Source: an uncultured Ignavibacteria bacterium
GTDB lineage: Bacteria > Zixibacteria > MSB-5A5 > JAABVY01
Direction: 5' to 3'
Length of the DNA: 64,000 bases
Assembly: GCA_964627935.1 (NCBI GenBank)
Contig: CAZVLB010000004.1
Span: 153,842-217,841 of the forward strand
Both the position numbers and the translations under genes were made by a program. Shown here one piece after another: positions 3,699 to 63,757 of this stretch (positions within the stretch are counted from its first letter, which is position 1; every line of letters starts with the position of its first letter). The notes beneath the pieces are model-generated. The model did no database searches and had not been told where the DNA came from. It worked only from the letters and a program-made list of their open reading frames with translations.

Positions 3699-3701
3699 GA
3701 A

Positions 3702-20110: not shown

Positions 20111-20136
20111 ACAACCTTTCGATCCTTTGAATGAAG

Positions 20137-20178: not shown

Positions 20179-20221
20179 TCATATGATTTGAATCCGAAAG
20201 CAGTTTTGTTATACTGAATTT

Positions 20222-20656: not shown

Positions 20657-20671
20657 GCCAGCCCTAAAAAC

Positions 20672-29524: not shown

Positions 29525-29542
29525 AGGACTGCCATCTTTACG

Positions 29543-40948: not shown

Positions 40949-42331
40949 TTGTTTCTGGGGCTCACGGCACAGGTTTTTGCGGTTCAATATTTTGAATCAT
41001 CAATGGGTTATTCAGTAGGAGCATGGCCCATGGGTGCAACCGCGGCGGACTTCAATGGTGATGGCTACCTGGATCTGGCCGTGGCAAATAATCCCGGCAG
41101 TAATATTTCTGTCTTGATCAATGACGGTGATGGGACCTTTGCAACCCAGGTATTTTATGCCACAAATCCGTCACAGTATCCATATAATGTCACCGCAGGT
41201 GATATGGATAAGGATGGAAATGTAGATATCGTTACAGGCGGAAGCATGGGGTTTGTGATATTTTACGGTAATGGCGACGGTACTTTCGCGGCCGCTGACA
41301 ATCACTACTTTGTCGAAACTGTACAAGATGTCGTAGTTGCCGATTTTAACAATGATACCTATCTGGATATTGCCACATCCCATGCGGTCCGTGATTCTGT
41401 TGGCATTCATATCAATAACCACGATTCGACCTATACAACTCATTTAGTTCCAACAGGGCAGGGAACCATCTCTCTTTCCGCCGCCCACTTGGATGGAGAC
41501 AGTTATATCGATCTGCTGGTGGGATGTAACAAGGGCGTGGTATGGAACCTGAAAAATGATCAGAGCGGCAGCTTTACCGGAACCGAGGTACATCTCGGTA
41601 TTCTGGATGATCCGGCCAGGATCGATGTGACCGATCTGGATGGCGACAATATCGGCGATTTCGTTGTGATTCATGCCGTTAATGATTTCCTGTTTCCATA
41701 CTTCAATAATGGAGATGGTACATATACGGTTGGCAGCGGCCATGTTACTACCGATAATCCCATCGCTGTTCGATTTGCTGATGTCAATGGCGACAGCAAT
41801 GAGGATATCCTTGTCGGCTACGGTACCTCTGACAGCGTGGAGCTTTATCTGAATCTCGGGTCAAATACATTCAGCCGCGATTCAGCCTATGATGTGGGCG
41901 GTACTCCGAAAGATATCGTGTATGCCGATCTGGATAATGACGGTTACAAAGATATGGCTGTGACAGCATACAATGGCGATAAAATCGAGGTCTTTCTGAG
42001 CAGGCTTTCTTTGATCGTTTCTGTCGATGATGTCACCACCGGTGCAGTACCGGATAAATATTCGCTGGAGCAGAACTACCCCAACCCCTTCAACCCGGAA
42101 ACCCATATCAGGTTCGCATTGCCGAAATCATCATATGTCAAGGTCGAGGTGTTCAATATGCTGGGCCGGTCGGTGGCGGTTCTGGTTGATGATTATCTGG
42201 AAGCGGGGATCAAGGAAGTCACCTGGAACGGCGTAAACAATTCCGGCCGGAAAGTCGCATCGGGAATTTACATGTACCGCGTCACAACCGACCAGTTCAC
42301 CGATTCAAAGACAATGCTGCTCCTGAAATAA
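40949..42331 (+). CDS. FG-GAP/VCBS-repeat secreted protein with T9SS C-terminal sorting domain
   Basis: 460 aa with a signal peptide. Repeated FG-GAP Ca-binding motifs ('DFNGDGYLDLAV', 'DMDKDGNVDIV', 'DLDGDNIGDFVV', 'DVNGDSNEDILV', 'DLDNDGYKDMAV'). C-terminal 'LEQNYPNPFNPETHIRFALPKSS…GIYMYRV…KTMLLLK'. Confidence 0.75.
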   Translation: MFLGLTAQVFAVQYFESSMGYSVGAWPMGATAADFNGDGYLDLAVANNPGSNISVLINDGDGTFATQVFYATNPSQYPYNVTAGDMDKDGNVDIVTGGSMGFVIFYGNGDGTFAAADNHYFVETVQDVVVADFNNDTYLDIATSHAVRDSVGIHINNHDSTYTTHLVPTGQGTISLSAAHLDGDSYIDLLVGCNKGVVWNLKNDQSGSFTGTEVHLGILDDPARIDVTDLDGDNIGDFVVIHAVNDFLFPYFNNGDGTYTVGSGHVTTDNPIAVRFADVNGDSNEDILVGYGTSDSVELYLNLGSNTFSRDSAYDVGGTPKDIVYADLDNDGYKDMAVTAYNGDKIEVFLSRLSLIVSVDDVTTGAVPDKYSLEQNYPNPFNPETHIRFALPKSSYVKVEVFNMLGRSVAVLVDDYLEAGIKEVTWNGVNNSGRKVASGIYMYRVTTDQFTDSKTMLLLK

Positions 42332-48559: not shown

Positions 48560-48856
48560 ACCGGAAGTCTCTCGTGCCATAAAACAGTATACAATCATAT
48601 CAGTCTGTGACTCTTAATGGCATCAGCGTCTTCCGTAAATGCCAATCTGTATAACTTAAGTTATAATCTCCTGCGAAAAGAATCTAAATCCGGCCCCACA
48701 ATGAATATCGACCGATAACTTCCCATTACCACGGCGAGCAAAGACTATCTAACTACCTAACAATAAGTTAAGTGGCTGTAAAAGCCCTCAAGAAATTTGC
48801 GCATATGTCGATATATAACTCGATGGGGCAAGGAGAAAGCTTTGCTAAAATATACC

Positions 48857-51800
48857 ATGAAAATAGCAGTTATGCTGCTATTGCTGGCCACAAATGTCGC
48901 ATTGCCTGTAAACTATTATGTTTCAACTACAGGTAATGACGATCTGGAGGGGACAACAGAGGAAACCGCCTGGGCATCGATCGATAATGGCGATCAGAAG
49001 GGCATCCTGTTGCCCGGAGATACGGTTAATATCCTGAACGGCACTTACACAATTACCTCGAAGATCGATTTGACCAGCAATGGCGCCCCGCATGCGCCGA
49101 TTGTCTATCTGAATTACGAGGATAAGGCGGTTGTACTCGATGCTGACAGTGCCGGCCTGGTGATAATCGAAAGCAATGGAAATCATGTCGTAATCAAAGG
49201 CCTTCAATTACAGCATACCAGCGATCAGGGAATCCATGTCAAGGGCGATTCAACCAGAATCATTGGCTGCTATGTTCATCATACAGGCAATGAAGGCTAC
49301 CGCAATGACGGCAACTACAACCTTTTTCTGCGAAATGTGGCCGCTAATTGCGGTGAAGAAGGATTCAAGAATGTAGGCGGTGAAGAAGGAGACAAGGATG
49401 GAGGGGGAGCAGATTTTGCAATATATCATCATAATGTGGCATACTCATGCCTTAAAGCAGGATTTGACCTGAATTTTAATAATTCTCGTGTTATAAATAG
49501 CATCTCTGTTCTAAATGATACAGGTATTAAAGGTGGCTCAAACAATCTTTGCGCCTATAATAATGTCTGGGGTAACCTTATGGAGGATTACGACGGTGGT
49601 GTGACTGATTCAGCCGGGGGTATGTCCGATAATCCCGGTTTTATAAATCCTGTCCTGAATAACTTTGGATTAAAGGGCAATTCATCCGTTATCGACAAGG
49701 GCATGTATCTTGGATACTCGTATCTGGGTACGGCTCCGGATATGGGCATATCTGAATTTGTGCCGGTCAATCTGCCGCCGAAGATTTCCAATATTTCTGC
49801 AAAAACCGTGTACCAGGGTGAGAGTTTAAACTTTGAGGTTTCAGCCACAGATGCCAATGGCACAATACCTTCACTAAGTGCAGAGAATCTACCCGCCAAT
49901 GCGGGCTTCATTGATAATGCTGATGGTACCGGCATGTTTGATTTTAATCCCGACTATTCTCAGTCGGGAGTATATGAGGTTCTGTTTATCGCCTCGGACG
50001 GAGAATTGGCAGATTCCGAATATGTCGAAATAACAGTCAATCTCGATCCGATCAGCTATATAGTCGTCAGCCCCGATTCGGCAATCATCTCCGCCGATTC
50101 GACACTACAATATACAGTTACAGGATTCAGCGCATCCGCACAGCCCCGTGATCCCGGAAATATCACCTGGGAATTAACAGAGGATATAGGCACAATCGAT
50201 TCAGAAGGCCTTTTCTCTGCCGAAATGACTGGAACCACAAGAGTGGTAGCAATCTCTGATTTGGGCCCGGTTGATACCAGCGCATATCTTGAAGTTGTCG
50301 CCGGTCAGCTGGATTCAATTGTCATCAGTCCACAGATTGACACACTTTCGGCCGATTCATCAGTGCAGTTCAGTGTATCAGGTTTCGATGCGGATGGTAA
50401 TGATGTTGTCGCCATGGGGAATTTGACCTGGGAAGTCATCAGGGGTATCGGCACAATAGATAATTCGGGCCTGTTCGAAGCTACCAAAGCCGACTATGGC
50501 TACATAAAAGTCACCAGCGATCTGGGACCGACCTCCACATCCGAGAAAATAGTCGTGATTCCCGGAAGGGCGGTGTATCTCAATGTGCTGCCTGAGGAAA
50601 ATCTGGCCGAGCAGGGTTCATCCACACAATACAGTGCAAAAGCCTATGATGTGGACAGCAATTTTGTCAGCGACACATCTTCATTCGTTACCTGGATAGT
50701 CACTGATCCCTCAGGTTCGATAACAGATGATGGCTTATACACTGCCGGGAGTGACCCCTCACCGCCGGTATATCATGTCATCGCCGATCTTGCTTCGATA
50801 CGTGATTCAGGGCAGGTAACGGTGATCTCCGATGGCAGCCTGGATTATATTCAGATCGAGTGGTTGGATGGCACTCCTGTTGAAGACAGCTCATTTACGA
50901 CCGATGATGACTCCCTCAAGATTTACTGCCGGGGATATGATTCGGATGATAATCTGCTTGGCAATATCCCCGTGACATGGAACCTGCAAAGTTCCGAACC
51001 GATAGGCCTCCTGCTCGAAAATTCAACATATTATACCAGACTAAATCTCGACACTCCCGGAAACGGACGGATTACAGCGCAGTATTCTGCGGATATTGTC
51101 GATACATCAGGCCTGATAACCTGTCAGACGGGTAACGCCACCAAGATTGTAATCAGCCCGGACACAATCACGGTCAGCGCAGACAGCACGATTCAATTTG
51201 CTGCAGATGCCTATGATAGTGATGGCAACTTAACCGGGCCGGTTGCGATCGATTCCTGGAATGTGATTGGTGATATCGGGCAAATAAGCAGCATTGGTAT
51301 ATTTAATCCGGACAGCGTCGGCATCGGCCAGATCACCTGCAGAAGCGGAATTCTGGAAGACACAAGCGGCACTATTACAGTTGTTGCAGGAGTACTGAGC
51401 AGATTGGAGATTTCGCCCGATTCACTCGAGCTGACACCTGGAAGTGGCTATGCCTTCGAGATTTCCGGCATGGATCAGGATGGAAATGACACGGAAACCG
51501 GCGGCCTGGCCTGGGAGGTGATCGGTGAAATCGGCACAATCGATAATTCGGGTTTATTCACGGCCATAAACGAGGGAAGTGGAAGAATTGCTGTTACAAG
51601 CAGTATAAACGGAATCGCCGACACGAATGAAATAGTGAGTGTAATTTCCGCAAACCTGGAGATGCTTGTCATAACCCCGGACACGGCCTCATTGATGACA
51701 AATGAATCTCTGCAATTTCAGGCATTCGGCTTTGATGCCGGGTACCAGCCTATCAATACAGGCGAGCTGACCTGGGAGGTTATTGGAGATATCGGCACGA

Positions 51801-54800
51801 TCGATTCCGAGGGTAATTTTGTGGCGAATGCAAAAGGGGTATGCAAAATCGCCGTAAGCAGCAGTATAAACTCACTTGCTGACACAACCAACCTCATAGT
51901 GGTGGAGGTGCCCACTATTAGTGAACTTCCGCTTGGCAACCAGATCATAATGCCCAATCAATCGCTGGCTCCTGTTCTGGCTTTTAAAATATCGAATGCA
52001 TTTGAAGAAACCAAATACCTTTCAGAAATCAGCCTCCGCAGCGCCTGCCGGGGGACCGGCAATTCATCCCAGCTTCTATCAAATATTGCCTCGCTGGCTG
52101 TTCACCAGGACCTGAACAATAACAGCATGCTCGATCAAGGTGATCTGACTGTGGGCACAACCTCGCAAATCGGGAACCTGGTCAATATAGTCCTGGATCC
52201 GGTTGCTATTCCCCAGGCCTCGAGCGCTAAATTCTTTATCTCGTTAAGGACATCGCTTTATCCGCATGATGGAGATTCACTTGATTTTTACATGCTGACT
52301 GCCTCTGATCTGAGTTTTACAAGCGGCACAGTACTGGCCGGACCGGACAGCGTAAATTCGCTTGGCTATTGCATTGTTGACGGTATGTCATCGGAACAGG
52401 TTCAGATAATTTCTTCCGGTAATCGAAGTGTAAATCCCGAATCAGGAATTGCGAAATGCCTGACACTGGATCTTCCACGTAATGGATATGAAGCTGATAC
52501 CTTAAATATTATCAGCCTGTTCAATGATGGTAATGCCACAACCATGGATATCGATTCATTCATGCTGTTCGGGGATGATGGTGATGGATCCTGGGAGAAC
52601 GCCTCTTCCGAAATATATTATGGAAAGATAACTTTCACCGGGCACCATTGGAGTTTAAGTGGCATAAATGTACCGCTGACAGCGCAAAACAATAGATTCT
52701 ACGTGTGTGCGGCACTTTCTGACTATCCAACTGATGGCAGAAAAATAGCGCTTGGTATTCCCAAAAGGGGAATCGAAATGGCATCCGAAAATGATGGCCC
52801 GCTTGATGCTCCTGTAAATCCGGTTGATACAATTACCATACTGGCATCCTCCGCCCTGACATTTGCTTCAGCTGATTTGCCGGCAGCCGAGCTTGTTCCG
52901 GGAGCACATTCCATGCCTCTTACAGTGATTGAGATAGGCAATGGCACGACCATGGATGTGCAACTGGACAGCTTGCGGATCAGACTCTATGCCAGCGATC
53001 CTGACGGTGCCCAGCAGGCCGAACTGAACAGCCAGATCGACAGCGTCATTTTATGGCTGAATAATGATGACGATCCCGGCACGCGAACTTCAGCCGACAG
53101 CATCATCGACCGGCGTGCCTTTTCAGGCTCCTCCATATTATTTGATACGCGTGGATTGACATTGTCGGCAAGCGGGGGTTCGGCCGAATTATTTGTTACC
53201 TCCGTATTGGATCCATATTTAAGCAAGAATGGAAATACAATCAATTTTGGATTGAATGATTCCATAGATATTTATATAGATCAATCAGTTGAAATTGCGG
53301 GGTCATTCCCGATTTCAAATCCGGAAGCTCACACGATTAATGCTTTCCCCTCAGGGGCAGTTGAGATTCATCCGGTTGAAGGTCAGAATTTATTCGGCGG
53401 TCAGAAGAACCAGATCTTTCTGGACTTCTCGCTTCCGGGTGATGGCTATCGTGATGCCCAGCTGAATACTCTCAGGGTTATTAACAGGGGAACGACCAAT
53501 AGCAATCAGGCCCTTGGAATAGTGAGATTGTGGGAGGATGTTGACTTCAACGGCCTTACCGCTAATGATATTTATCTGGGTCAGTTATACAATAACAATG
53601 GTTACTGGACTGTAAATGACCTGAGACATTCATTTGAACGCGCTAATAACAGGTTTATAGTTTCCGCCGACATTGCCAATACGGAATTTGCGGGGGGCAC
53701 GCTTCGTTTTGAGATTCCGGTGGGTGGCGTTGAATTTGCGGGAGGCACGACCGGCCCGGATGATGAACCGGCCGGAAATCCCGAATCACATTTCCTTTTG
53801 CCCGCCAACCGGGTCACAGCCATCTCTATTCCTCAGGAGCTGATCATAGCCAGGCCGGGAAGCAAAAATGTCCAGATTCTTACATTCGCTCTCTATAACG
53901 GTTATCTTGAAAATGAACATACACTCCGGTCAATCAGGTTTTTAAACAAAACATCCACTATTTCAGATGACGGCTATGCCGACTATGAGCTGGGCCAGGT
54001 ATCGCTCTACATCGACAAGAATGGAAACAGGAGCTTCGATGATGATTCCCTTCTGGCGGTGGGATATTTCAGCAATGGCGCCCTGACACTTAATGGTATA
54101 AATGCAGAACTGCTTCCGGAAGAATTGGCCTATTTCTTTGTGCTTTCCGATTTGCCGTTAAATCTGATCGATAATGATACGCTGGCAATTTCGATTGAGT
54201 CCACCTCAGACTTCATTTTTGAGCAGACAGTCAATCTCAATGGTGATCTACCGCTCATGCGCGGAGGGAAAGTCGTTTTGGATGGTTCGGTTAGTGAGCA
54301 GTATCAGCAATACGGCCTGTCAAACCGCACGCTTTCTCCCGGCGACATTAATGTCTGTCTGTTTGCGTTTAAACCGGCAATAAATGGCAATCTTGATGAT
54401 CTCTTACATGAAATCACACTTGAAAATAGGGGTGATGCAGATCAAAATGATATAAAATCGCTGGAACTGTGGACAGATAGCAATGGCGACGGGCTGTTTC
54501 AGGAAGGTGATTTATATCAGGGTGAATTTTTGTTCACGGATCCCGGCTGGACCTATTCCGGCATGGGATTGACGATTAATGGTAACTCGCCGGCATTATT
54601 CGTGGTGGCTGATATTTCCACAACTGCTGCAACCGGCAGGAGCATTCAATTAAAATTGCCCTTAAATGGCTGCCAGTATACATCAGGCAATGATGGTCCT
54701 CTTGACGATGCGGTTATTGCCGAACAGATATTTCTGATTTCCGCTTCCGGTCTCAGGATCAGCTTTGAGGCCCTGAACTCTGAATACACGGTAGGTGAGA

Positions 54801-57388
54801 AGTTTTGCACAATTGCCACAATCACGAATTTAACCCAGGATGCGGTACAGGATATAAAATGCGATATATCACTGTTTGATAATTCAGGCGCGCTGGCCGG
54901 GGATAGCAGTTATCTGGGGCCGGTCACTATTGCACCGGGCGAAAGCGAAGAATTTTATCACTGCTATACTGCCGTCAAATCCGGAAGCGTGCACTGGGAA
55001 ATTCAGGCATACTCACTGGTGGGGCCGGATTCAACCGGATTATTGATCAGCGATACGGTCCTGATACAGAGCATACCGCAGGATCTGAAAATAAATCTCA
55101 TCAGCTCAATTCCGGCTTCAGTGATAAGGGGCCAGACCCATGTTTATCCATTGAGCATAAGCTATAATTACCCTGACGGCGAGGACAATTCCGCTCCCCT
55201 GCGTCTCGATAGCCTGCGGATTCGGGTTACAGATGGCAGCGGCAATCCGCGTATCGCCGACGAGACATTCTCCAGGATGGTATTAAGCAGTGGATACAGC
55301 AATTTGGCCGTGCTCGAAGATTTAGCGGCAGAATCATCGGTACTGATCGAATTTGATACGCCTGATGTCATGTATCCGGGTGAAAAGAGAGCATTGTCGC
55401 TGATGGTTGATATTGACAGTTCTGCTGAGACCGGAGATTTTCGGGTGCTGATAGAAAATCCCGGGCATATCGCATTTGTCGAGTACAATACCGGCCTGCC
55501 TATAACATTCGATGAATCCGTCCAGTTTCCATTACAGACCGCCTCATGCAGAATTGACAATCCCTCCCGGTATATGGCGGTGTCATATGTTCCTGCACTG
55601 GGAGAGTATATAAATTACGGGCAGAATGATGTCAGTTTCTTGAACCTAATTCTGCGTCACCCGGGAGAAGCGCAAAGCTCCCAGATCCAGCTTACAGGAC
55701 TGTCATTTGAGTTTGTAAATTCACTGGGCGAGAGCATGCCCGTCTATGAATTCCTGGATGAGATAAAAGTATTGAGACAGGATATGTTGATTGGATACCT
55801 TGATAATTTCAGTTTAATGAATGATAGTGTCTGGATTCAACTCAATGCCCCGCCCGTGCTCAGTCCGGGAGAAATCGATACGATTTCGCTCAAATGTTCA
55901 ATGCATGATAATGTAGCCTTCGAGGAAATCGGGCTCAGAATCAATGACAGCACTGCTTTTACATTCAGGGATGTAAGCTCAGGTCTTCAATTGAGTGCTG
56001 TAAGCGATAAGGATTCCCTTTCGGCGGATGAAATCTTCCCGATGTTTTCAGGGCTTGCCAGTTTTAAACAACCCGCTGAAGCTGTGGAAATATGTATCAA
56101 CCCTGCATTGCAATCATCCGTTGTTGGAGGAGCAGATTCAGTGGCGCTATTTGATATCTTACTCGGTTATCCGGTATCCGGACAATATTCTTCTATAAAC
56201 ATAAGCTCTATCGAAATAAGTGTCCTGGATACCCTCGAAAGAGCTCTCGATCCATCCCGGGTATTCAACCGCATAGGCTATCGACTGCAGGAGAACCCTG
56301 TAGAATATCAATCTTATGTAAGGCTGCATGAGGGCAGGGCGGTATTTGACTTCAATTCGAATGCAATTGTCCTGGCCCCGGACGAACAACTCAACCTGCG
56401 GCTTGTGGCCGATCTGGAATCGGATGCGCCCTATGATCATTTTATGGTCGTGATACAAGGTTGGAATCATATTAAGGCCGTTGATGCGACTGATACGACT
56501 CATGAGCCCGACTATCTTGATTTCGGCAGTTGCAATATGGTATTCCCCTGCGTATCTGGGGCCGCACAGATTTTCCTTCCCGCCGCCAAACCATCCCTGA
56601 ATATCAGTGACCAGCCGGTGCAAATCGGTTATCCGGGACAATCGGGAGTAACACTGTTTTCGGCTGAAATCGATTACCACAGTACTGGTTTTGTTGGTGA
56701 CCTGCTCCTGCTGGGAGTAAATGGCGAGGTTAGACAGCGTACCCAAAATGGCCTGGAATATGTCCGGGACAAAACTATTTTCGATCGGATTAAATTGTTT
56801 ATTAACGACAGCCTGATTGCCGGTGACAGCATTCTTACAGACGGCATTTTGGATTTGGAACCGATATCTGATTATATAATCTCGCGAGACAATGAATATG
56901 AGCTGAGCTTAGTCGCTGATATCTCACCCGAAGCTGATTTGGGAAATTATACACTGAGATTTATTGATTCCACATTTTTGCCATTTGCCGACAAGAATCT
57001 CAATACGGAGATCTTTGCGAATATAGCAAGCAGAAGCTATCCGATCACCGGTGCCGAGCTGTCTCTTGACGAGGCCTCATTGGAGGGATCTTTCACAAAT
57101 TACCCCAATCCATTCAATCCAAACATGGATAAATTCACGAGAATTGCTTTCAGCCTCGATCAGGATGCTCGCATCGATATCGAGATATTTACCATTACCG
57201 GAGAACGGATCAGGGTACTGGCCGAAAACTCGCTAAGATCAGCCGGCACTTATACAGATGATCAATGGAATGGCCTGAACGATTTGAACCTGATGGTTCT
57301 GCCGGGTACATATTTCTGCCGCATAACTGCCCGTTATGATTCCGGCAGGACGGAGACGCTCAGGAGAAAGATCGCGGTAATAAGATGA
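48857..57388 (+). CDS. giant secreted adhesin-like protein (beta-helix N-terminal domain, multiple Big_2 Ig-like repeats, T9SS C-terminal sorting domain)
   Basis: About 2843 aa from the ATG at 48857, following AGGAGA (the track ORF begins 48797). Signal peptide 'MKIAVMLLLLATNVALP'. Parallel-beta-helix repeats ('VVIKGLQLQHTSDQGIHVKGDSTRIIGCYVHHTGNEGY'). At least 10 Big_2-like repeats ('…SADSTLQYTVTGF…TWELTEDIGTIDSEGLFSA'). C-terminal 'FTNYPNPFNPNMDKFTRIAFSLDQDARIDIEIF…GTYFCRITARYD…KIAVIR'. Confidence 0.8.
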   Translation: MKIAVMLLLLATNVALPVNYYVSTTGNDDLEGTTEETAWASIDNGDQKGILLPGDTVNILNGTYTITSKIDLTSNGAPHAPIVYLNYEDKAVVLDADSAGLVIIESNGNHVVIKGLQLQHTSDQGIHVKGDSTRIIGCYVHHTGNEGYRNDGNYNLFLRNVAANCGEEGFKNVGGEEGDKDGGGADFAIYHHNVAYSCLKAGFDLNFNNSRVINSISVLNDTGIKGGSNNLCAYNNVWGNLMEDYDGGVTDSAGGMSDNPGFINPVLNNFGLKGNSSVIDKGMYLGYSYLGTAPDMGISEFVPVNLPPKISNISAKTVYQGESLNFEVSATDANGTIPSLSAENLPANAGFIDNADGTGMFDFNPDYSQSGVYEVLFIASDGELADSEYVEITVNLDPISYIVVSPDSAIISADSTLQYTVTGFSASAQPRDPGNITWELTEDIGTIDSEGLFSAEMTGTTRVVAISDLGPVDTSAYLEVVAGQLDSIVISPQIDTLSADSSVQFSVSGFDADGNDVVAMGNLTWEVIRGIGTIDNSGLFEATKADYGYIKVTSDLGPTSTSEKIVVIPGRAVYLNVLPEENLAEQGSSTQYSAKAYDVDSNFVSDTSSFVTWIVTDPSGSITDDGLYTAGSDPSPPVYHVIADLASIRDSGQVTVISDGSLDYIQIEWLDGTPVEDSSFTTDDDSLKIYCRGYDSDDNLLGNIPVTWNLQSSEPIGLLLENSTYYTRLNLDTPGNGRITAQYSADIVDTSGLITCQTGNATKIVISPDTITVSADSTIQFAADAYDSDGNLTGPVAIDSWNVIGDIGQISSIGIFNPDSVGIGQITCRSGILEDTSGTITVVAGVLSRLEISPDSLELTPGSGYAFEISGMDQDGNDTETGGLAWEVIGEIGTIDNSGLFTAINEGSGRIAVTSSINGIADTNEIVSVISANLEMLVITPDTASLMTNESLQFQAFGFDAGYQPINTGELTWEVIGDIGTIDSEGNFVANAKGVCKIAVSSSINSLADTTNLIVVEVPTISELPLGNQIIMPNQSLAPVLAFKISNAFEETKYLSEISLRSACRGTGNSSQLLSNIASLAVHQDLNNNSMLDQGDLTVGTTSQIGNLVNIVLDPVAIPQASSAKFFISLRTSLYPHDGDSLDFYMLTASDLSFTSGTVLAGPDSVNSLGYCIVDGMSSEQVQIISSGNRSVNPESGIAKCLTLDLPRNGYEADTLNIISLFNDGNATTMDIDSFMLFGDDGDGSWENASSEIYYGKITFTGHHWSLSGINVPLTAQNNRFYVCAALSDYPTDGRKIALGIPKRGIEMASENDGPLDAPVNPVDTITILASSALTFASADLPAAELVPGAHSMPLTVIEIGNGTTMDVQLDSLRIRLYASDPDGAQQAELNSQIDSVILWLNNDDDPGTRTSADSIIDRRAFSGSSILFDTRGLTLSASGGSAELFVTSVLDPYLSKNGNTINFGLNDSIDIYIDQSVEIAGSFPISNPEAHTINAFPSGAVEIHPVEGQNLFGGQKNQIFLDFSLPGDGYRDAQLNTLRVINRGTTNSNQALGIVRLWEDVDFNGLTANDIYLGQLYNNNGYWTVNDLRHSFERANNRFIVSADIANTEFAGGTLRFEIPVGGVEFAGGTTGPDDEPAGNPESHFLLPANRVTAISIPQELIIARPGSKNVQILTFALYNGYLENEHTLRSIRFLNKTSTISDDGYADYELGQVSLYIDKNGNRSFDDDSLLAVGYFSNGALTLNGINAELLPEELAYFFVLSDLPLNLIDNDTLAISIESTSDFIFEQTVNLNGDLPLMRGGKVVLDGSVSEQYQQYGLSNRTLSPGDINVCLFAFKPAINGNLDDLLHEITLENRGDADQNDIKSLELWTDSNGDGLFQEGDLYQGEFLFTDPGWTYSGMGLTINGNSPALFVVADISTTAATGRSIQLKLPLNGCQYTSGNDGPLDDAVIAEQIFLISASGLRISFEALNSEYTVGEKFCTIATITNLTQDAVQDIKCDISLFDNSGALAGDSSYLGPVTIAPGESEEFYHCYTAVKSGSVHWEIQAYSLVGPDSTGLLISDTVLIQSIPQDLKINLISSIPASVIRGQTHVYPLSISYNYPDGEDNSAPLRLDSLRIRVTDGSGNPRIADETFSRMVLSSGYSNLAVLEDLAAESSVLIEFDTPDVMYPGEKRALSLMVDIDSSAETGDFRVLIENPGHIAFVEYNTGLPITFDESVQFPLQTASCRIDNPSRYMAVSYVPALGEYINYGQNDVSFLNLILRHPGEAQSSQIQLTGLSFEFVNSLGESMPVYEFLDEIKVLRQDMLIGYLDNFSLMNDSVWIQLNAPPVLSPGEIDTISLKCSMHDNVAFEEIGLRINDSTAFTFRDVSSGLQLSAVSDKDSLSADEIFPMFSGLASFKQPAEAVEICINPALQSSVVGGADSVALFDILLGYPVSGQYSSINISSIEISVLDTLERALDPSRVFNRIGYRLQENPVEYQSYVRLHEGRAVFDFNSNAIVLAPDEQLNLRLVADLESDAPYDHFMVVIQGWNHIKAVDATDTTHEPDYLDFGSCNMVFPCVSGAAQIFLPAAKPSLNISDQPVQIGYPGQSGVTLFSAEIDYHSTGFVGDLLLLGVNGEVRQRTQNGLEYVRDKTIFDRIKLFINDSLIAGDSILTDGILDLEPISDYIISRDNEYELSLVADISPEADLGNYTLRFIDSTFLPFADKNLNTEIFANIASRSYPITGAELSLDEASLEGSFTNYPNPFNPNMDKFTRIAFSLDQDARIDIEIFTITGERIRVLAENSLRSAGTYTDDQWNGLNDLNLMVLPGTYFCRITARYDSGRTETLRRKIAVIR

Positions 57389-59409
57389 TGAGTCGGCTTA
57401 CCATAAAATTCATGGTTATTTTGATGGCCCTTGCATTTTGCAATAAGGCATCATCAGATCCCGGATTGGACTCCCCATTCAGCATGGGGGCGGGCGCGAG
57501 AGAACTGGCCCTGAGCGGTTCATCATCGGCCGTTTGTGACCCGGTTTATGCGGCATACTGGAATCCTTCTGTCCTGGCGCGGGCTCAACAGTTCTCATTG
57601 ACCGCCTTTCACACAACCTTGTACGATCCGGATGTAACCTATCAATATTTCGGATTGACATATCCTACTCTGGACTATGGTAGCTTTGGTGTCGCTGTGC
57701 TTCGACTGGGCATAAATGGAATTGAGCAAAGGGATGCGAACAACCTGCTTCTGGGCAGCTTTGATGACAGCCGTATGGCGCTCAATGTGGCCTATGCAAG
57801 GAAATTCGCAGGTTATGATCTGGGCCTGGCAGTAACCTTAGAAAGACATTCACTCGAATCATACTCCGCCACATCCTCACCGGGTTTAAATCTGTCAATA
57901 AGCCGCAGGTTCAATTCGGGCATGCCCTGGCTGCCGCAGATAACGGCCGGCATAAACGCCAAAAACCTGATCCGGCCCAGCATTAAAATATTAAATGAGA
58001 ATATCAAATATCCCTATACATTTGACGCCTCTATGGCAGTGCGGTTGAATCCGATGCAGGATTGGAATCAAAATATTCTGCTTACCACCGGCATCGTCAA
58101 GGAGGATATGGTAGATCCGCATTTCACCGCCGGGCTGGAGTACGGTCTTTATGACCTGATTCATCTGCGCACATCGATTAACGGAGAACACCCCTCATTT
58201 GGTGTGGGGGTCAGTTATAAATCCATGAAATTCGATTATGCCTTAGTCGAGCGTGACCTCGGCAGCCTGCACATGTTTGGCATAACTACATCCCTGGGAG
58301 CATCAGTTGATGAGCGGCGAATTCAACGCGAGAACAGGCGTGAAGAACGGTTTAATGACCTGATGGCCAAAAGCCTGCAGGATAGAAATGTGTTAATAAT
58401 CTCTGATCTGTTCAGGCAGGCGGAAAACCGCATGATCGAGAATCAATACAATGAAGCGGCAGGTTTATATGAAAGAGGGCTATTTCTTGCACGAACCAGT
58501 GGCCTTGATTCATCAGAGATGTACCATAATGCGGTAGAGTCAAACAAGCTGCTAAATGAAATTATATTAAAGCAGTCATTCGAAGTGATGATGGATTCCG
58601 CCTTTGCAAATTATTCTGAGGGCAGGCTTTTGAAAGCACGCTACTATGCCGACCGCGCGCTGGAAAAAATTCCTGAATCGAGAGATGCAAACAACCTTCT
58701 GGCCGAGATTGAGACAAAGATCGATAAGACCACATCAACCGAATACCTGATAGAAAACCAGCTGGCCATGGCCGATTCATTGCTGCATTATGGAAAAATT
58801 GATCAGGCCATTACAGCTTTGCACAAGATTCAGTCTCATGCCGATAAGGATGGACGTATCTCTTCAGCTCTGAAAAGAGCGAGTTTCGAAAAATGGCGCA
58901 ATTCCGCGCAAAGTTTCTTTGAAAGCGGGAACTACCAGACTGCCGGGGACGCACTGGATTCAGCGGCAAGATTATACCCCGATCATCCCTGGTGCGCGGA
59001 TTTGAACCTGAAAATTAAGGCTCAAAGGGCCAGGCAGGCGGCATCGCCAAAAGTCTCTTCTATTGCCGGAAGCACGAATGACCTGGATGATGATCTTTTG
59101 CGTGAGGTCAAGGATTCCTATGAAAAAGGCAGAAATCTCTTTAAAGATGGTAAGCTTGAAGGCGCTATCAGCCAGTGGGAGAAAGTGGAAAAGCTGGCCC
59201 CGGGCTATCTGTCGGTAAGGGAATATCTGGTAAATGCCTACAAATATCTTGGTGTGGAATTATATGGCAAAAACAGGCTGGCTGATGCGGTTTCCATATG
59301 GAAAAAGGCCATTTCACTGGATCCATCAAACAATGAGATCGGCAGTTATTTAAGACGCACAGAAGCCGAAATGAACCGCTTGCAGGAGTTAACATATGAA
59401 ACCGAATAA
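57385..59409 (+). CDS. PorV/PorQ-like (FadL-superfamily) outer-membrane beta-barrel fused to C-terminal TPR repeats
   Basis: 674 aa with a signal peptide. N-terminal 'GARELALSGSSSAVCDPVYAAYWNPSVLA' matches the GAR…G…A…D…A.YWNPAGLA signature of PorV/PorQ/UPF0164 barrels. The C-terminal roughly 330 aa hold TPR-like helical repeats. Its start overlaps the giant adhesin stop (ATGATGA). Confidence 0.55.
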   Translation: MMSRLTIKFMVILMALAFCNKASSDPGLDSPFSMGAGARELALSGSSSAVCDPVYAAYWNPSVLARAQQFSLTAFHTTLYDPDVTYQYFGLTYPTLDYGSFGVAVLRLGINGIEQRDANNLLLGSFDDSRMALNVAYARKFAGYDLGLAVTLERHSLESYSATSSPGLNLSISRRFNSGMPWLPQITAGINAKNLIRPSIKILNENIKYPYTFDASMAVRLNPMQDWNQNILLTTGIVKEDMVDPHFTAGLEYGLYDLIHLRTSINGEHPSFGVGVSYKSMKFDYALVERDLGSLHMFGITTSLGASVDERRIQRENRREERFNDLMAKSLQDRNVLIISDLFRQAENRMIENQYNEAAGLYERGLFLARTSGLDSSEMYHNAVESNKLLNEIILKQSFEVMMDSAFANYSEGRLLKARYYADRALEKIPESRDANNLLAEIETKIDKTTSTEYLIENQLAMADSLLHYGKIDQAITALHKIQSHADKDGRISSALKRASFEKWRNSAQSFFESGNYQTAGDALDSAARLYPDHPWCADLNLKIKAQRARQAASPKVSSIAGSTNDLDDDLLREVKDSYEKGRNLFKDGKLEGAISQWEKVEKLAPGYLSVREYLVNAYKYLGVELYGKNRLADAVSIWKKAISLDPSNNEIGSYLRRTEAEMNRLQELTYETE

Positions 59410-61003
59410 AAGTGACTTTGGCAAAGGCTGGCCAAAGGCCTCGAATTTTAAACGCTCAATTCGGTTTGAAGTTACATTGTTCGTATCGGCCATTATTCTG
59501 GCGCTTATGCTGATTACCGGCTATGTCATGTCCGATCGCTATGTTGATACAGTAACCAGGGGCATCGCGGAAAAAATGCTCATACAGGCCAGGTCATACT
59601 CGGGTCCGGCCGGGAAGCTTATAATTTCAATGGATGGCCCGGATGCTTTGTTGTTGAATAACATTTGCAAGAAACTGGCAGCCGATAATGCGGATATCTA
59701 CTGGGCCGGAATCACCAATTCCGAAAGCGAATTTCTGGCACATACTGATCTGCAGAAAGTGATTTCATCAGAGCGAATGAAAGATATCCGGGCAAATCAC
59801 CTCGCAGAAATATTGCGCCCCGATGAAATTTTTAATCTCGGTGATGATACCCTGTATGTTTCTGTTCCCATTACGGAAAACGAGATTTTGCTTGGAAGAC
59901 TGCATGTCGCCGCTTCTACGTCATCAATCGAAAAGGCCCGAAAAGACTCGACGGTGACTGTGGCCTCAATAACTATCCTGATGATAATCTTCGGTCTGCC
60001 GCTTACTATGCTGGTCCTGCATGTCAGGCTCAAGCCGATTCGGACCATTACCAGCCACTTGAAAAATATCGATTTTGATCGAATCTCCCTCGACATCCCA
60101 TTGAAAAAGAAGGATGATTTCGGTTATCTGGCGGAAACCTTGAAAGTTATGGGAGTAAAGCTGCAGGCTGCCCAGCGTGAACAGATCGAAAAAGAGAGGA
60201 TCGCACGCGAACTTGAAATTGCCAGGGAGATTCAAAACAGCCTTCTTCCAAAGAGCAATCCCTCCGCGGCGGAGCTTGATTTCGCATGCGCCTACAGCAG
60301 CGCCAAAGAGGTTGGCGGCGACTATTACGATTTCATTGAATTTGACCCGGATCATCTGGGCATAATCGTGGCAGATGTCTCTGGTAAATCACTTCCGGGC
60401 ATGCTGGTCATGTTGATGACCAGAGATATTGTCAAGGCCGCTACTCACAGCTATGATAATCCCGGCAAAATACTGAGCGCCATTAACAGAAAACTGAAAG
60501 AGAATATCAGGCCGGGCATGTTCGTTACGATGTTTTTGGGGATCTTTGAAAAATCCACTTCGAAATTCATATTTGCATCAGCCGGACATAATCCTCTGGT
60601 ATGGTTTGATTCAGTGGCGAATGAATGCAGGCTCATAAAAACCAAAGGATATCCACTTGGGATGATGCCAGATAAGGTCTTCTTGGAGCGAATAGAATCA
60701 GATGAAATCAGGCTGTCTGCAAATGATTTGATTGTTCAATATACGGATGGAGTTAACGAGGCGCAAAATCCCGAGGGCGCTGAGTTCGGGTTGGACAGGT
60801 TTGTTGATTTGATTAAGGATCATGCCGCTTGCGATGTTAACAGCATAAGCGACCGTGTTCTCGATGGCCTGAACGAGTTTGTCAGAAATGCGGAGCAGTA
60901 TGACGATATAACACTCCTGGCCGTAAAATGGCTGGGATCTGCTGATATGGAATCCATGAAACACAGTGAAGAGGCGAAGATAATTGATGCTTACAATGAG
61001 TGA
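59396..61003 (+). CDS. membrane-bound HAMP-PP2C (SpoIIE/RsbU-like) serine phosphatase
   Basis: 535 aa. TM1, a roughly 150-aa periplasmic domain, TM2 ('ITILMIIFGLPLTMLVL'), then HAMP. The PP2C/SpoIIE domain has 'EIAREIQNSLLP', 'EVGGDYYDF', 'IIVADVSGKSLPG' and 'DGVNEA'. Confidence 0.8.
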   Translation: MKPNKSDFGKGWPKASNFKRSIRFEVTLFVSAIILALMLITGYVMSDRYVDTVTRGIAEKMLIQARSYSGPAGKLIISMDGPDALLLNNICKKLAADNADIYWAGITNSESEFLAHTDLQKVISSERMKDIRANHLAEILRPDEIFNLGDDTLYVSVPITENEILLGRLHVAASTSSIEKARKDSTVTVASITILMIIFGLPLTMLVLHVRLKPIRTITSHLKNIDFDRISLDIPLKKKDDFGYLAETLKVMGVKLQAAQREQIEKERIARELEIAREIQNSLLPKSNPSAAELDFACAYSSAKEVGGDYYDFIEFDPDHLGIIVADVSGKSLPGMLVMLMTRDIVKAATHSYDNPGKILSAINRKLKENIRPGMFVTMFLGIFEKSTSKFIFASAGHNPLVWFDSVANECRLIKTKGYPLGMMPDKVFLERIESDEIRLSANDLIVQYTDGVNEAQNPEGAEFGLDRFVDLIKDHAACDVNSISDRVLDGLNEFVRNAEQYDDITLLAVKWLGSADMESMKHSEEAKIIDAYNE

Positions 61004-61787
61004 TTCCAAATGCATTATTGTAATTCCAGAGTGTCTTGATCCGGATATTCTGGATACATTCTATAGCGATCTGGATCGTATTGCGAATTCGCAGATAAAG
61101 CAGATCAGAGTGGATTGCTCAAATATTACCGAGGTCTCGGGAAGAAACCTGGTAATTATCTGGCAACTTTATGATAGATTGCGTGCAGTGGGTGTCGATA
61201 TCGAATTTAAATCAGTTCCCCAAAAACTCGAGCATATTCTCAAGAGACATGTCTTCAATGGTTCCAACGCAAGGCATGTTTATGAAGCCGAGTCAACTCG
61301 GCAGCGGGAGGCGCTCGCGCCAGATAGTTCGCAGAAAATGATAGAATTGAGCTTCAGGCCGACCCGGGATGAAATCGATAATACAGTCAACCTGCTCAAG
61401 GATTTCCTGCATGATAAAAGAGTCATTGATCTCGAGGTTTTCGAGCTCATGACCGTATTTTATGAGGCCGCGACAAATATCCGCCTGCATGCAGATCTTA
61501 ATCCCGATTCCTGGATCGATTTCACAGCACTGGTCTCGGGGGAAAACGTCTTTATGCGAATAGAGGATCGTGGAATTGCATTTGACCCGACGTTGATGCT
61601 GAAAACATTTGATCCAACCCAGGCCATGAAAAGCCGGAAAAAGCGGGGGCTTGGTATCATATTGATGGCGAGGTTGGTAGATTCAATGACATATCTAAGA
61701 AGTATGGATGGAAAAAACATTCTGTATTTAAATAAATCTCTAACCAGGGGAGAGAAAAAATATGTTGTCGCATCAAGTTATAAATGA
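60984..61787 (+). CDS. STAS domain fused to RsbW-like anti-sigma-factor serine kinase (GHKL)
   Basis: 267 aa. The N-terminal roughly 95 aa are STAS-like ('IIVIPECLD…VDCSNITEVSGRNLVIIWQLYDRL'). The C-terminal roughly 150 aa are an HATPase_c_2/RsbW-like kinase ('ELMTVFYEAATNIRLHA', 'RIEDRGIAFDP', 'RGLGIILMARLVDS'). Confidence 0.55.
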   Translation: MMLTMSDSKCIIVIPECLDPDILDTFYSDLDRIANSQIKQIRVDCSNITEVSGRNLVIIWQLYDRLRAVGVDIEFKSVPQKLEHILKRHVFNGSNARHVYEAESTRQREALAPDSSQKMIELSFRPTRDEIDNTVNLLKDFLHDKRVIDLEVFELMTVFYEAATNIRLHADLNPDSWIDFTALVSGENVFMRIEDRGIAFDPTLMLKTFDPTQAMKSRKKRGLGIILMARLVDSMTYLRSMDGKNILYLNKSLTRGEKKYVVASSYK

Positions 61788-62106
61788 TGAGGCGGCCTTA
61801 ATCAACACCGGACGTGAACTTGATAATAATAATGCTCATGAAATGGTTGAATTGATTACGGAGCTTCAAAGTAAGCAATATAAGTATGTCTTTTTGGACT
61901 TTACCGAGCTGGAGTTTCTTTCTTCAGCCGGTGTCGGGTCTATTCTTGGCACAATCGAAATACTGAGAGAGGCCGGTGGAGATATTGTTATCTGCAATGC
62001 CTCGGAGAAGATTCTGCATATCCTGGATGTGCTCGATCTGACCGATTATCTTACTATCAAGAAATCTGTCGAAGAAGCCAGAAAAACATATGTAGATGCC
62101 AATTGA
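61762..62106 (+). CDS. STAS-domain anti-sigma-factor antagonist (RsbV/SpoIIAA-like)
   Basis: 114 aa. 'VFLDFTELEFLSSAGVGSILG' carries the canonical phosphorylatable Ser-containing loop of anti-anti-sigma factors. Confidence 0.75.
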   Translation: MLSHQVINDEAALINTGRELDNNNAHEMVELITELQSKQYKYVFLDFTELEFLSSAGVGSILGTIEILREAGGDIVICNASEKILHILDVLDLTDYLTIKKSVEEARKTYVDAN

Positions 62107-63757
62107 TCGGAAGTTTGAGATGGATACGTCCGCCAAAAGCAATATGATCATAAATACAAATCGACGGGAATTTGAAAAACAGCTAATGGCTCTTGATGCT
62201 CTTTCCAAGCTTACCGCGAAATTTTCAAAGAGCACCGATTTTGGGCACTTGATTCAGGTTCTGCTCTGGACACTATCCGGTCAATTCTCCATTGCAAACT
62301 CATTTGCCATTGTTAAAAGGCCAGGCGCGAGGGATGATAGCTTTTTATATCTTGGCACAGGCAAGCTGATGAATTCCAATGCACTAAAAGAATTTGAGCT
62401 TAGCCGGGAATACCAGGAGTATTTTGTTGATAATCAATCGATCAGAAACGTGTTTGAACTTGAGTTGCCAAGCCATCTGGCAGGCTTTGTCTTCATTGCA
62501 AGCGAATGCGGCCTGGAACTGATATGTCCACTGGTTAATAATAAACGCTTTTTAGGTGTAATCGGGCTGGGCAAGAAGGTAACCAAAGAAGCTATCGATA
62601 AGCAGGAAATCGAGCTTATCTCGACCCTCATACAAACTGTCACTCCATTCCTGGTTAACAGCTATTTATTCTGGGAAATGGCCACACTCAAAGCATGGTA
62701 TGTTGATATTCTGGACAGTATCAATCAGGGAATTTATGTCTTTGATGAGAACAACAAGCTGAAAAAGATGAACCTGGCGGGATTTGCGATTCTGAAGAGC
62801 ATGAAGCCGACTTTGCCGGATATCAATATGATGCAGGGCGCGCCACTGGAACTGATTTTTCCCGATGATATATTTTCGGGCTGGAACAAAAGATTGATGG
62901 CGCTGAAAAATAAAAATAAACGAGCCCTGATTGAAAATATGATCGCCAGAAGCGATGAAATCAAAAAGATATTTAATGTCCGCCTGAGTCTTTCCATAAA
63001 TGAATCCCAATCGTGCAAGGATATGATCATTACTCTGGATGATGTTACTCAGCAGAAGGAAAATGAGGAAATGATGTTCAATCTGGAGAAACTGGCCGAT
63101 AAGGGGTCCATGGCCTCCTCTATAGCGCATGAGCTGAATAACTTCCTGGGCATGATAATGGGTGGAGCTGAGATAACCGAGGTTGCTCTTAAAAGAGATC
63201 AATATGACAAGGCGGAAAATACACTGGAAAAGGTCAAGGACAATATCATGAATATGAAGAGATATACCGCCGGCCTGATGGACTATGAAAAGCTTAAACC
63301 CAGCAAAAGCATCGCTGACATCAACAAAATTATATCCGATGTGATTTCTTTTGTGTCTGTACAGAAAAAATATAGAAATCTAAAGATCAATTCAGAGTTC
63401 GATCGAAATATTATTAAATTTGAGATGGATAAGGACCAGATTGCCCAGGTGATATTGAACTTCATGAGTAATGCGGCCGATGCGATTGGGGAAGCCAACA
63501 GAACGGATGGTATAATCTCAATCCGAACAGAAGCGGATGCGGACAATGTTGTTTTGATTATCTCCGACAATGGCTGCGGTATGCCGGATGAAGTCAAATC
63601 CGAGCTCTTTGAAAATAGGCTCACAACAAAAGAGAGTGGACATGGTCATGGACTTCTGACGTGCGGAAAAATACTGAAATATCATAATGCAAACGTTGAG
63701 GTGGATTCAGCTCCCGGCAAAGGCACAATCTTTAAGATTACATTTACTATCCAGTGA
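62096..63757 (+). CDS. cytoplasmic GAF/PAS sensor histidine kinase
   Basis: 553 aa. GAF-like N-terminus, PAS, H-box 'SIAHELNNFLGMIMGG', and HATPase 'ISDNGCGMP…GHGHGLLTCGKIL…GKGTIFKITF'. No receiver domain. Confidence 0.8.
   Translation: MPIDRKFEMDTSAKSNMIINTNRREFEKQLMALDALSKLTAKFSKSTDFGHLIQVLLWTLSGQFSIANSFAIVKRPGARDDSFLYLGTGKLMNSNALKEFELSREYQEYFVDNQSIRNVFELELPSHLAGFVFIASECGLELICPLVNNKRFLGVIGLGKKVTKEAIDKQEIELISTLIQTVTPFLVNSYLFWEMATLKAWYVDILDSINQGIYVFDENNKLKKMNLAGFAILKSMKPTLPDINMMQGAPLELIFPDDIFSGWNKRLMALKNKNKRALIENMIARSDEIKKIFNVRLSLSINESQSCKDMIITLDDVTQQKENEEMMFNLEKLADKGSMASSIAHELNNFLGMIMGGAEITEVALKRDQYDKAENTLEKVKDNIMNMKRYTAGLMDYEKLKPSKSIADINKIISDVISFVSVQKKYRNLKINSEFDRNIIKFEMDKDQIAQVILNFMSNAADAIGEANRTDGIISIRTEADADNVVLIISDNGCGMPDEVKSELFENRLTTKESGHGHGLLTCGKILKYHNANVEVDSAPGKGTIFKITFTIQ

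Follow-up and report, generated by a model that had tools for sequence, protein, structure and literature searches.

The stretch of DNA analyzed here (the window; 64,000 nucleotides of contig CAZVLB010000004.1, assembly GCA_964627935.1, from an uncultured bacterium of the Zixibacteria lineage) carries at positions 48857-63757 a cluster of six genes, all on the forward strand. The first encodes a giant surface protein that ends in a T9SS-type sorting domain (T9SS, type IX secretion system), and the second a PorV-like outer-membrane β-barrel extended by a TPR domain. The other four encode an inner-membrane sensor phosphatase, an RsbW-type serine kinase, a STAS protein and a histidine kinase. The cluster is a new combination of known parts, which is widely conserved and unstudied in the literature that we searched. 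We read it as one conserved unit that links a surface protein and its barrel to signaling, from the outside in, via the STAS protein and the histidine kinase; we regard the case for this reading as evenly balanced. Its features, as given by the open reading frames (ORFs) of the window and by the junctions read from the sequence, are listed below, with lengths and positions within proteins in amino acids (aa).

48560-48856, no strand: upstream intergenic gap of ~300 bp, presumed promoter region, read from the sequence
48857-57388, forward: gene 1, giant surface protein of 2843 aa, ORF taken from the ATG at 48857
49817-51946, forward: Big_2-like repeats within the giant protein, aa ~321-1030, recurring every ~90 aa (self-comparison of fragments; Pfam Big_2, E 2.7e-12)
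52004-57046, forward: conserved stalk of the giant protein, ~ten β-sandwich modules, each of ~160 aa, spanning aa ~1050-2730 (repeats spaced by ~160/320 aa)
57089-57385, forward: C-terminal sorting domain, last ~100 aa, probable T9SS type A / FlgD-Ig-like
57385-59409, forward: gene 2, PorV-like outer-membrane barrel (aa ~27-305), long helix and TPR domain (aa ~353-674)
59396-61003, forward: gene 3, inner-membrane sensor phosphatase with a first transmembrane segment, periplasmic domain, second transmembrane segment, HAMP-like linker and PP2C/SpoIIE domain
59531-59950, forward: periplasmic domain of gene 3, aa 46-185, ~140 aa
60281-60955, forward: PP2C/SpoIIE domain of gene 3, aa 296-520 (PF07228, 152 bits)
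60984-61787, forward: gene 4, STAS-like N-terminus and RsbW/SpoIIAB-type serine kinase (aa ~131-255)
61762-62106, forward: gene 5, single-domain STAS protein of the RsbV/SpoIIAA type with a phosphorylatable serine
62096-63757, forward: gene 6, soluble histidine kinase with a GAF-like N-terminus, a PAS domain, a dimerization and phosphotransfer (DHp) domain with the H-box SIAHELNN, and a catalytic domain

The six ORFs (48797 or 48857-57388, 57385-59409, 59396-61003, 60984-61787, 61762-62106 and 62096-63757) were found on the forward strand exactly where a sequence-only reading of the window had placed them, and its claim that the genes overlap is borne out by overlaps of 4 to 26 nt. At the junction between the giant gene and gene 2, AGATGATGAGT, the stop codon TGA of the giant gene (57386-57388) and the ATG at 57385 give an overlap of 4 nt. 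With the longest ORFs, the overlaps at the remaining four junctions amount to 14, 20, 26 and 11 nt. The overlap between genes 3 and 4 becomes 17 nt instead of 20 with the ATG at 60987, the start picked by the gene caller. That between genes 5 and 6 is either the 11-nt overlap or a gap of ~10 nt if the histidine kinase begins at its next ATG, the start of this kinase being ambiguous because its N-terminus is not conserved. For the giant protein, the length of 2863 aa in the sequence-only reading is right for the longest ORF (from TTG 48797) and does not follow from that reading's own start at ATG 48857, which gives 2843 aa; the start chosen by the gene caller, TTG 48842, gives 2848 aa. AGGAG-like motifs lie upstream of genes 2, 3 and 5. 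The tight packing is not due to chance, because it recurs in 33-40 related loci, where the median junctions are -4, -14, -11, -12 and +4 nt. Scans for promoters and terminators stayed at chance level within and after the cluster. The same holds for the scan of the upstream gap, with its single sigma-70-like match at 48639-48667. Judging from their packing, the six genes are probably co-transcribed.

A genome scan anchored on the barrel-TPR protein of gene 2 (hereafter PorV-TPR) and built from an eight-sequence alignment recovered 38 loci, to which the six window proteins were compared by tblastn. The same order and strand are found in all 38 of these loci from Zixibacteria-type genomes wherever the contig has room, and the flanking genes vary from locus to locus. 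Identities to the window proteins are typically 38% for the giant protein (~38% in all related loci), 42% for PorV-TPR, 53% for the PP2C protein, 55% for the STAS protein and 43% for the histidine kinase; the lowest value, ~28%, belongs to the kinase encoded by gene 4. Complete genomes with the cluster include CP070677.1, OY969724.1 and JAWLBI010000001.1. Close homologues of PorV-TPR number ~90 full-length proteins with 40-72% identity, mostly from metagenome-assembled genomes (MAGs) of Zixibacteria. Two loci that could be taken for truncated clusters (L035 and L036, in CP070756.1 and CP070766.1) were rejected as such, their breaks being scaffold joins of 100 N inside the cluster (at 13246-13345 in the first, and at 9888-9987 and 13170-13269 in the second), that is, assembly artefacts.

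More distant relatives keep the arrangement at identities of only 23-27% for the giant homologues and ~25% for PorV-TPR. This context was confirmed in Latescibacterota, Krumholzibacteriota, Gemmatimonadales and two further lineages. A scan of metagenomes with distant PorV-TPR proteins added 16 loci, which show the order giant, PorV-TPR, sensor wherever there is room. At E<=1e-30 the PorV-TPR family comprises 501 clusters (~500 at 50% identity), nearly all of 630-700 aa. Its members also bear the name Eisenbacteria, beside Krumholzibacteriota and Gemmatimonadales, and some of the distant ones are named 'PorV/PorQ family protein' at NCBI. Conserved synteny, on which the sequence-only reading had staked its proposal of a coupled operon, is thus present in close and distant relatives alike, across at least four named phyla. 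We place the window in a Zixibacteria-related member of the FCB group, and the cluster occurs in this group and in phyla related to it. These comparisons support the view that the six genes form one conserved unit, invariant in order and strand in the related loci with room, and we hold a functional linkage of all six to be highly probable. As a taxonomic aside, the closest genome (72% identity) and several third-party annotation (TPA) MAGs are labeled Ignavibacteria or Ignavibacteriales, and their cluster proteins group with those of Zixibacteria; the Ignavibacteria labels of these TPA MAGs (L005 and other loci) may be loose.

The giant protein consists of a signal peptide (MKIAVMLLLLATNVALP, beginning at ATG 48857), a β-helix head that is Pel9A-like according to the annotation of the same protein, about eight Big_2-like repeats, two blocks of ~160-aa immunoglobulin (Ig)-like modules and the C-terminal sorting domain, in this order. 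An AlphaFold2 (AF2) model of its last 814 aa is all-β (mean predicted local distance difference test score, pLDDT, 88) and shows tandem Ig-like β-sandwiches. In fold, the stalk model comes closest to Ig-like domains of adhesins, to the legs of integrins and to an S-layer protein; by sequence, the giant protein has no useful match in the PDB. The head is not conserved, as the distant giant homologues either lack it or carry CLIPPER or CARDB domains in its stead. It is this architecture that suggests the label 'adhesin' for the protein.

The C-terminal domain (CTD) of the window protein scores 20.1 bits against TIGR04183, for which the cut-off is 23 bits, and has no Pfam match. It resembles the CTD of an M6-like T9SS protein and that of PorU, the latter being also its closest PDB entry by sequence (E 0.013), and the AF2 model of the tail ends in a β-sandwich. 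Among 32 orthologous tails, FlgD_ig is matched by 20, Por_Secre_tail by 14 and CHU_C by 8. The giant protein may depend on a T9SS for its export. The CTD is also the best-conserved part of the protein, with a mean pairwise identity among orthologues of 0.58 as against 0.40 for the stalk. It contains 17 invariant positions, including the cysteine of GTYFCRI, a degree of conservation that is unusual for a mere secretion signal.

The protein encoded by gene 2 matches the NCBIfam model PorV_fam (NF033709) with an E-value of 2.7e-20 over profile positions 9-325 of 326. Its 73.2 bits remain below the curated cut-off of 90 for the PorV/PorQ family, and it fails all the equivalog models tried (PorV 16.8 against 250 bits, PorQ 35.7 against 220, PorV2 57 against 325). 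The C-terminal part matches TPR families. In the AF2 model (pLDDT 84) there are 14 main strands, a long helix and an all-helical TPR region. The top PDB folds for the barrel are PorV chains from SprA translocon complexes, namely 8gl6_F (E 5.7e-11, template modeling (TM) score 0.66) and 6h3i_F (TM 0.68), and FadL folds rank behind them (TM 0.39-0.50), so that the model is that of a 14-strand, FadL-like barrel closest to PorV. With PorV, gene 2 shares the barrel type with its N-terminal plug, the PorV/PorQ superfamily of hidden Markov models (HMMs) and the proximity to a protein with a T9SS-type CTD, the CTD protein in this case being its immediate neighbor. It differs from PorV in the additional C-terminal TPR domain of ~370 aa and in its failure to reach the curated cut-offs. 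Because a barrel with an even number of strands, here 14, places both of its ends on the same side of the membrane, the TPR domain should be periplasmic. The best-conserved parts of the protein are the plug region and the last TPR block, with mean pairwise identities of 0.56 and 0.53. The gene linkage suggests that this barrel is dedicated to the giant protein, rather than serving as a general shuttle.

The catalytic features of the remaining four proteins are conserved, namely the PP2C motifs, the N- and G-boxes of the serine kinase, the STAS serine and the H-box of the histidine kinase. Every domain call of the sequence-only reading holds, the weaker scores in the window being backed by orthologues and by structure models. 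The window copies lie above the curated thresholds for SpoIIE/PP2C, HATPase_c_2, STAS, TIGR00377 and HATPase_c; the matches to PorV_fam, the TIGR04183 CTD, the STAS-like N-terminus of gene 4, HisKA and PAS are real and sub-threshold; and HAMP and GAF yield no Pfam match in the window's own proteins. In gene 3, the N-terminal half matches the sensor and HAMP regions of WalK, CreC and AtoS. An HMM of its aa 1-285 finds the sCache_3_2-HAMP regions of all the distant relatives, in which Pfam confirms sCache_3_2 and HAMP. The metal-binding motifs GGDYYD, DVSGKS, TDG and DDITLL are intact in the translation, and the best NCBIfam match is SiaA. The mean pairwise identity of its periplasmic domain (0.51) is near that of the catalytic domain (0.57). 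Conservation of the giant CTD, of this periplasmic domain, of the last TPR block and of the plug fits a set of fixed protein partners that would meet in the periplasm.

Gene 4 is identified as a kinase by HATPase_c_2 (PF13581; 45.3 bits, cut-off 27.4) and retains the N-box E..tN..H and the D.G and G.G motifs, which are conserved in 29 orthologues. Its N-terminus (60984-61283) resembles STAS domains at sub-threshold scores (STAS_2 25.7 bits, STAS 20.2 bits) and reads VSGRN in the window; at least 80% of the orthologues show V[ST]S.H at this place, the second serine being conserved. Gene 5 is a clear antagonist-type STAS protein (STAS 61.3 bits; TIGR00377 64.8 bits, cut-off 53.45). Its SSAGVG motif is invariant in 33 orthologues, and we take it to align with Ser58 of SpoIIAA and Ser56 of RsbV. 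Gene 6 has both the DHp domain with the phospho-accepting histidine and the ATPase domain of a histidine kinase (HATPase_c 76.8 bits; HisKA 22.3 bits, cut-off 26.9; a weak PAS_7 match; AtoS-like, E 6.5e-47). GAF is detected in a relative, and an HMM of its N-terminal domain matches, in the distant loci, the cluster's own kinase only and no neighboring kinases. No cognate response regulator is encoded in the window's cluster, the window ending 243 bp past gene 6. Hybrid kinases that include a receiver domain are present in some relatives; in others, as at locus L046, a second kinase is followed by a receiver gene.

The genes that accompany the giant and PorV-TPR genes differ between lineages and loci as follows.

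Zixibacteria: sensor-PP2C, then STAS-like domain with kinase, then STAS, then histidine kinase
Latescibacterota: HAMP-PP2C, then kinase and STAS fused, then histidine kinase
Krumholzibacteriota and loci L045, L055, L057, L066: sCache-HAMP-PP2C and kinase fused, then STAS, then histidine kinase
Loci L046, L048, L052: fused sCache-HAMP-PP2C and kinase, then histidine kinase-STAS fusion, then second kinase
Loci L060, L061: all genes separate
Loci L047, L053/L054, L056: sCache-HAMP-HD-GYP, no switch module
Locus L044, 2986-24250: giant and divergently transcribed PorV-TPR only, with extracytoplasmic function (ECF) sigma and anti-sigma genes nearby
Gemmatimonadales: cluster without histidine kinase

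Thus, most of the distant lineages unite sCache, HAMP, PP2C and RsbW in a single protein. A GAF-HisKA-HATPase-STAS fusion is found at L046 (18562-20358), L048 (12875-14620) and L052 (3744-5489), in each case with the phosphorylatable serine kept and with no free STAS gene. Elsewhere, the sensor ends in an HD-GYP domain (HD_5) instead of PP2C (L047, ~19599-20690, where the gene is seemingly split by a frameshift; L053, 9677-11248; L054, 11805-13262; L056, 6356-8005). As the sensor-HAMP part is kept while PP2C is swapped for HD-GYP, the constant core comprises the giant protein, PorV-TPR and the Cache/HAMP sensor, and the cytoplasmic output of the cluster is, on these comparisons, modular. Just 5' of the cluster at L046, on the reverse strand (3154-7367), a UPF0164/PorV-like barrel gene lies beside one for a Peptidase_M6/FG-GAP protein, a pair that looks like PorV2 and an inactivated M6 metalloprotease (NCBIfam NF052325 and NF052323).

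The same comparisons bear on whether the surface protein with its barrel and the signaling genes are two independent modules that merely lie side by side. L044, where the giant protein and PorV-TPR occur without a sensor, speaks for such independence. Against it, the genes remain adjacent, in order and tightly joined in the phyla named above at identities that range from ~70% to as low as ~25%, and the flanks turn over completely while the signaling domains fuse, split and swap. We therefore consider a chance neighborhood very improbable.

The presence of a PP2C phosphatase, an RsbW/SpoIIAB-type kinase and a STAS protein with a conserved serine, together with weak equivalog matches of gene 4 to SpoIIAB and RsbW, could also point to an anti-sigma circuit. 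Here the RsbW-like kinase would hold a sigma factor encoded elsewhere until dephosphorylated STAS frees it, the sigma factor would perhaps drive the operon, and the histidine kinase would form an input or output of its own. The sequence-only reading had remarked that the window lacks a sigma factor, and indeed none occurs among its ORFs of at least 150 aa, nor is there one inside any of the related clusters inspected. L044 is the sole locus with ECF sigma and anti-sigma genes nearby (its flanks contain two sigma genes of the ECF type, one zf-HC2 anti-sigma gene and a number of further CTD proteins), and it has no sensor or switch module. Moreover, the kinase of gene 4 is the least conserved member of the set, it is joined to the membrane sensor in most of the distant lineages, STAS is joined to the histidine kinase in some lineages, and HD-GYP stands in for the whole switch in others. 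An anti-sigma circuit is in our estimation quite unlikely. The module would rather comprise the three parts of a partner switch with an output other than a sigma factor. The histidine kinase-STAS fusions argue for an action of STAS on the histidine kinase, a step that we see as evenly poised between right and wrong.

We propose that the giant, stalk-like protein with its T9SS-type CTD is made together with its own PorV-like barrel, and that the periplasmic domain of the sensor would read the state of the resulting cargo-barrel complex. It might do so through contact with the conserved end of the TPR domain, or through contact with the highly conserved CTD of the giant protein, the latter in parallel to the pairing of the PorA CTD with PorY in Porphyromonas. 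The signal would pass via HAMP and alter the activity of PP2C, which would jointly with the RsbW-like kinase set the phosphorylation of the conserved STAS serine. The state of STAS would then control the GAF-PAS histidine kinase, rather than a sigma factor, and the histidine kinase would signal to a response regulator encoded elsewhere. The physical contacts in this scheme and the direction of signaling are ones that we infer. The comparative data lean toward outside-in signaling because the enzymes are intact, the outputs are interchangeable (PP2C, switch and kinase, or HD-GYP) and STAS is fused to the kinase; the direction itself nonetheless stays a tentative choice, to which we give somewhat less than even weight.

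The sequence-only reading had favored the opposite direction, with envelope signals controlling the secretion or function of the adhesin post-translationally. Spelled out, cytoplasmic or envelope signals would act via PP2C and the switch on secretion, surface retention or activity of the giant protein, and the periplasmic domain of the sensor would act on PorV-TPR, much as LapD/LapG control the giant adhesin LapA of Pseudomonas. Consistent with this, the regulators and the cargo are linked in all lineages examined, the conserved periplasmic domain of the sensor is encoded beside a barrel whose TPR domain should also be periplasmic, and the HD-GYP variant recalls the cyclic di-GMP (c-di-GMP) control of LapA retention, as generally known for LapADG. 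The cytoplasmic domains, however, are intact enzymes and not degenerate receptor domains; the last gene of the cluster encodes a histidine kinase, at times fused to STAS, so that the output points into the cell; and the cluster encodes no periplasmic protease or other effector for the giant protein. Control from the inside out hence fits less well than sensing from the outside in, and we consider it unlikely.

Several observations weigh against the proposed outside-in scheme, or against parts of it. The PorV-TPR protein of L044 has a full TPR domain with no sensor present, so that this domain must serve some purpose besides contact with the sensor. Likewise, as the Gemmatimonadales locus does without the histidine kinase, this kinase is not an obligatory output. 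Both the CTD and the PorV-like domain of the window proteins score below the curated cut-offs. None of the T9SS machinery (SprA/Sov, PorK/L/M/N, PorU, PorV) was recognized in the window, the stretch to which this observation is confined. The STAS-like N-terminus of gene 4 has glycine in the window where at least 80% of the orthologues have serine, and the carriers of the cluster are uncultured MAGs throughout. An RsbW-like kinase tethered to the membrane might nonetheless hold a sigma factor whose gene lies elsewhere, and the Cache domain could equally bind a small molecule.

The last point leads to a reading in which Cache senses a ligand, e.g. a product of the pectate-lyase-like head, with the FadL/PorV-like barrel as its entry channel and the TPR domain as a scaffold. 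The sCache_3_2 domains in the relatives of the sensor, the Pel9A-like β-helix of the head and the FadL transporters among the fold matches of the barrel are all in keeping with this. The head, however, is not conserved, the conserved parts being the stalk, the CTD, the barrel and the sensor, and the barrel is structurally closer to PorV than to FadL. Sensing of this kind thus seems improbable to us.

Searches of the literature on T9SS with partner switching or STAS, and on Zixibacteria or Latescibacteria with T9SS, found no account of the cluster. Among known systems, we know of no signaling genes attached to sprB/sprF, the pair that the sequence-only reading had invoked as a precedent. The pair is apt as an analogy, a giant surface adhesin of Flavobacterium being encoded beside its own outer-membrane β-barrel partner in that case too (PMC9143113). 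It is less apt with regard to family, since SprF belongs to the PorP and not the PorV family, and the CTD there, as in other pairs of cargo and PorP-like barrel, is of type B (PMC9143113), whereas the one in the window resembles type A / FlgD-Ig-like domains. The nearest conceptual precedent is PorA-PorY of Porphyromonas gingivalis, where PorA, a T9SS cargo found bound to PorV, binds with its CTD the sensor kinase PorY in the periplasm and activates PorXY-SigP (PMC7712824, PMC12152298). The contention that signaling of this sort had not been described for T9SS cargo must be qualified accordingly: the cluster itself is absent from the literature searched, and cargo-linked signaling is known from the PorA CTD and PorY (PMC7712824, PMC12152298). 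In both systems a T9SS cargo would be the signal to an inner-membrane sensor and a cytoplasmic cascade, the contact between CTD and sensor being hypothetical in the cluster. In PorA-PorY/PorX-SigP, sensing is done by a histidine kinase of the classical sort and the last member of the cascade is an ECF sigma factor; the cargo, PorA, is small, and no single operon unites the genes with a PorV paralogue. The cluster has instead a Cache-HAMP-PP2C (or HD-GYP) sensor, followed by the kinase/STAS switch.

With RsbU/V/W and SpoIIE/AA/AB, the cluster shares the PP2C phosphatase, the RsbW-type kinase and the STAS protein with its conserved serine. It is better grouped with partner switches that do not act on sigma factors, i.e. 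SiaABCD and HsbR/HsbA of Pseudomonas, SypE/SypA of Vibrio and BtrU/V/W, which acts in type III secretion of Bordetella. HenR of Anabaena is a further partner switch with a non-sigma output (PMC13555669). SiaA is, like gene 3, a membrane HAMP-PP2C protein. Both non-sigma outputs and the control of secretion are known for partner switches in general; none linked to a T9SS-type cargo and a PorV-like barrel was found in the literature searched. The switch in the window differs from the known ones in its likely output, a GAF-PAS histidine kinase as suggested by the kinase-STAS fusions, and in the extra STAS-like domain on its kinase.

Two further systems connect outer-membrane components to an inner-membrane partner. 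The LapA/LapE/LapD/LapG system of Pseudomonas fluorescens combines type I secretion with a periplasmic protease and with inside-out signaling by a degenerate c-di-GMP receptor. It resembles the cluster in having a giant repetitive adhesin at an outer-membrane pore and an inner-membrane partner with periplasmic and HAMP domains; type I secretion, the degenerate receptor and the protease are all absent from the window cluster. In FecA-FecR-FecI, a TonB-dependent barrel with an N-terminal signaling domain leads to an anti-sigma/ECF output. Here the likeness is that a periplasmic extension of the outer-membrane barrel would contact an inner-membrane transducer, and the differences lie in the barrel family, in the N-terminal signaling domain as against a C-terminal TPR domain, and in the anti-sigma/ECF output.

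Elsewhere in the window, directly 5' of the giant gene (46940-48559), lies a gene for an XylR-type sigma-54 activator with XylR_N and V4R sensor domains. Sigma-54 control of the cluster was considered and rejected, as the 300-bp gap contains no -24/-12 site and the activator is not kept beside the cluster in relatives. Three more proteins carry T9SS-type CTDs at or near the thresholds: a 1694-aa repeat protein with LapB_rpt_80 and tandem-95 repeats (15026-20110; TIGR04183, 35.5 bits), a 369-aa protein (32674-33783) and an FG-GAP repeat protein (40949-42331). They are an indirect hint that T9SS machinery may be present in the genome. The regions 5605-14482 and 28286-32326 are unusually dense in multi-PAS hybrid histidine kinases and response-regulator fusions (1130, 820, 379, 927 and 412 aa). 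On the reverse strand, 21640-24552 encodes a protein of 970 aa in which Pfam recognizes nothing but a dockerin type I domain at the C-terminus, and 24705-25691 a protein with an ARPP-1 (ARG and Rhodanese-Phosphatase-superfamily-associated) domain (E 5.6e-57).

On a more speculative plane, the cluster might encode a hitherto unrecognized trans-envelope sensing device. A giant filament delivered by T9SS would be held at the cell surface by its dedicated PorV-TPR barrel. Via the TPR domain or the CTD, the filament would signal contact with a surface, load or the status of its own export to a Cache-HAMP sensor with swappable outputs, either a serine switch that acts on a histidine kinase or the hydrolysis of c-di-GMP. 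This would amount to a surface-sensing organ built from T9SS parts, a notion that we regard as doubtful.

To our knowledge, work on the biology of T9SS has been confined almost entirely to Bacteroidota, and what is known of its regulation comes nearly all from PorXY-SigP. In at least four named phyla, the cluster provides a direct link between signal-transduction enzymes on the one hand and a T9SS-type cargo with a PorV paralogue on the other. If this linkage is functional, PorV-like barrels can have roles beyond that of a shuttle, and for partner-switching modules an outer-membrane complex can be the source of the input and a histidine kinase the receiver of the output. The pairs TPR/Cache, CTD/Cache and STAS/kinase would then be concrete candidates for how these bacteria sense their own surface. 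If true, this would provide a functional handle on a conserved gene set of large, uncultured phyla of soil and sediment.

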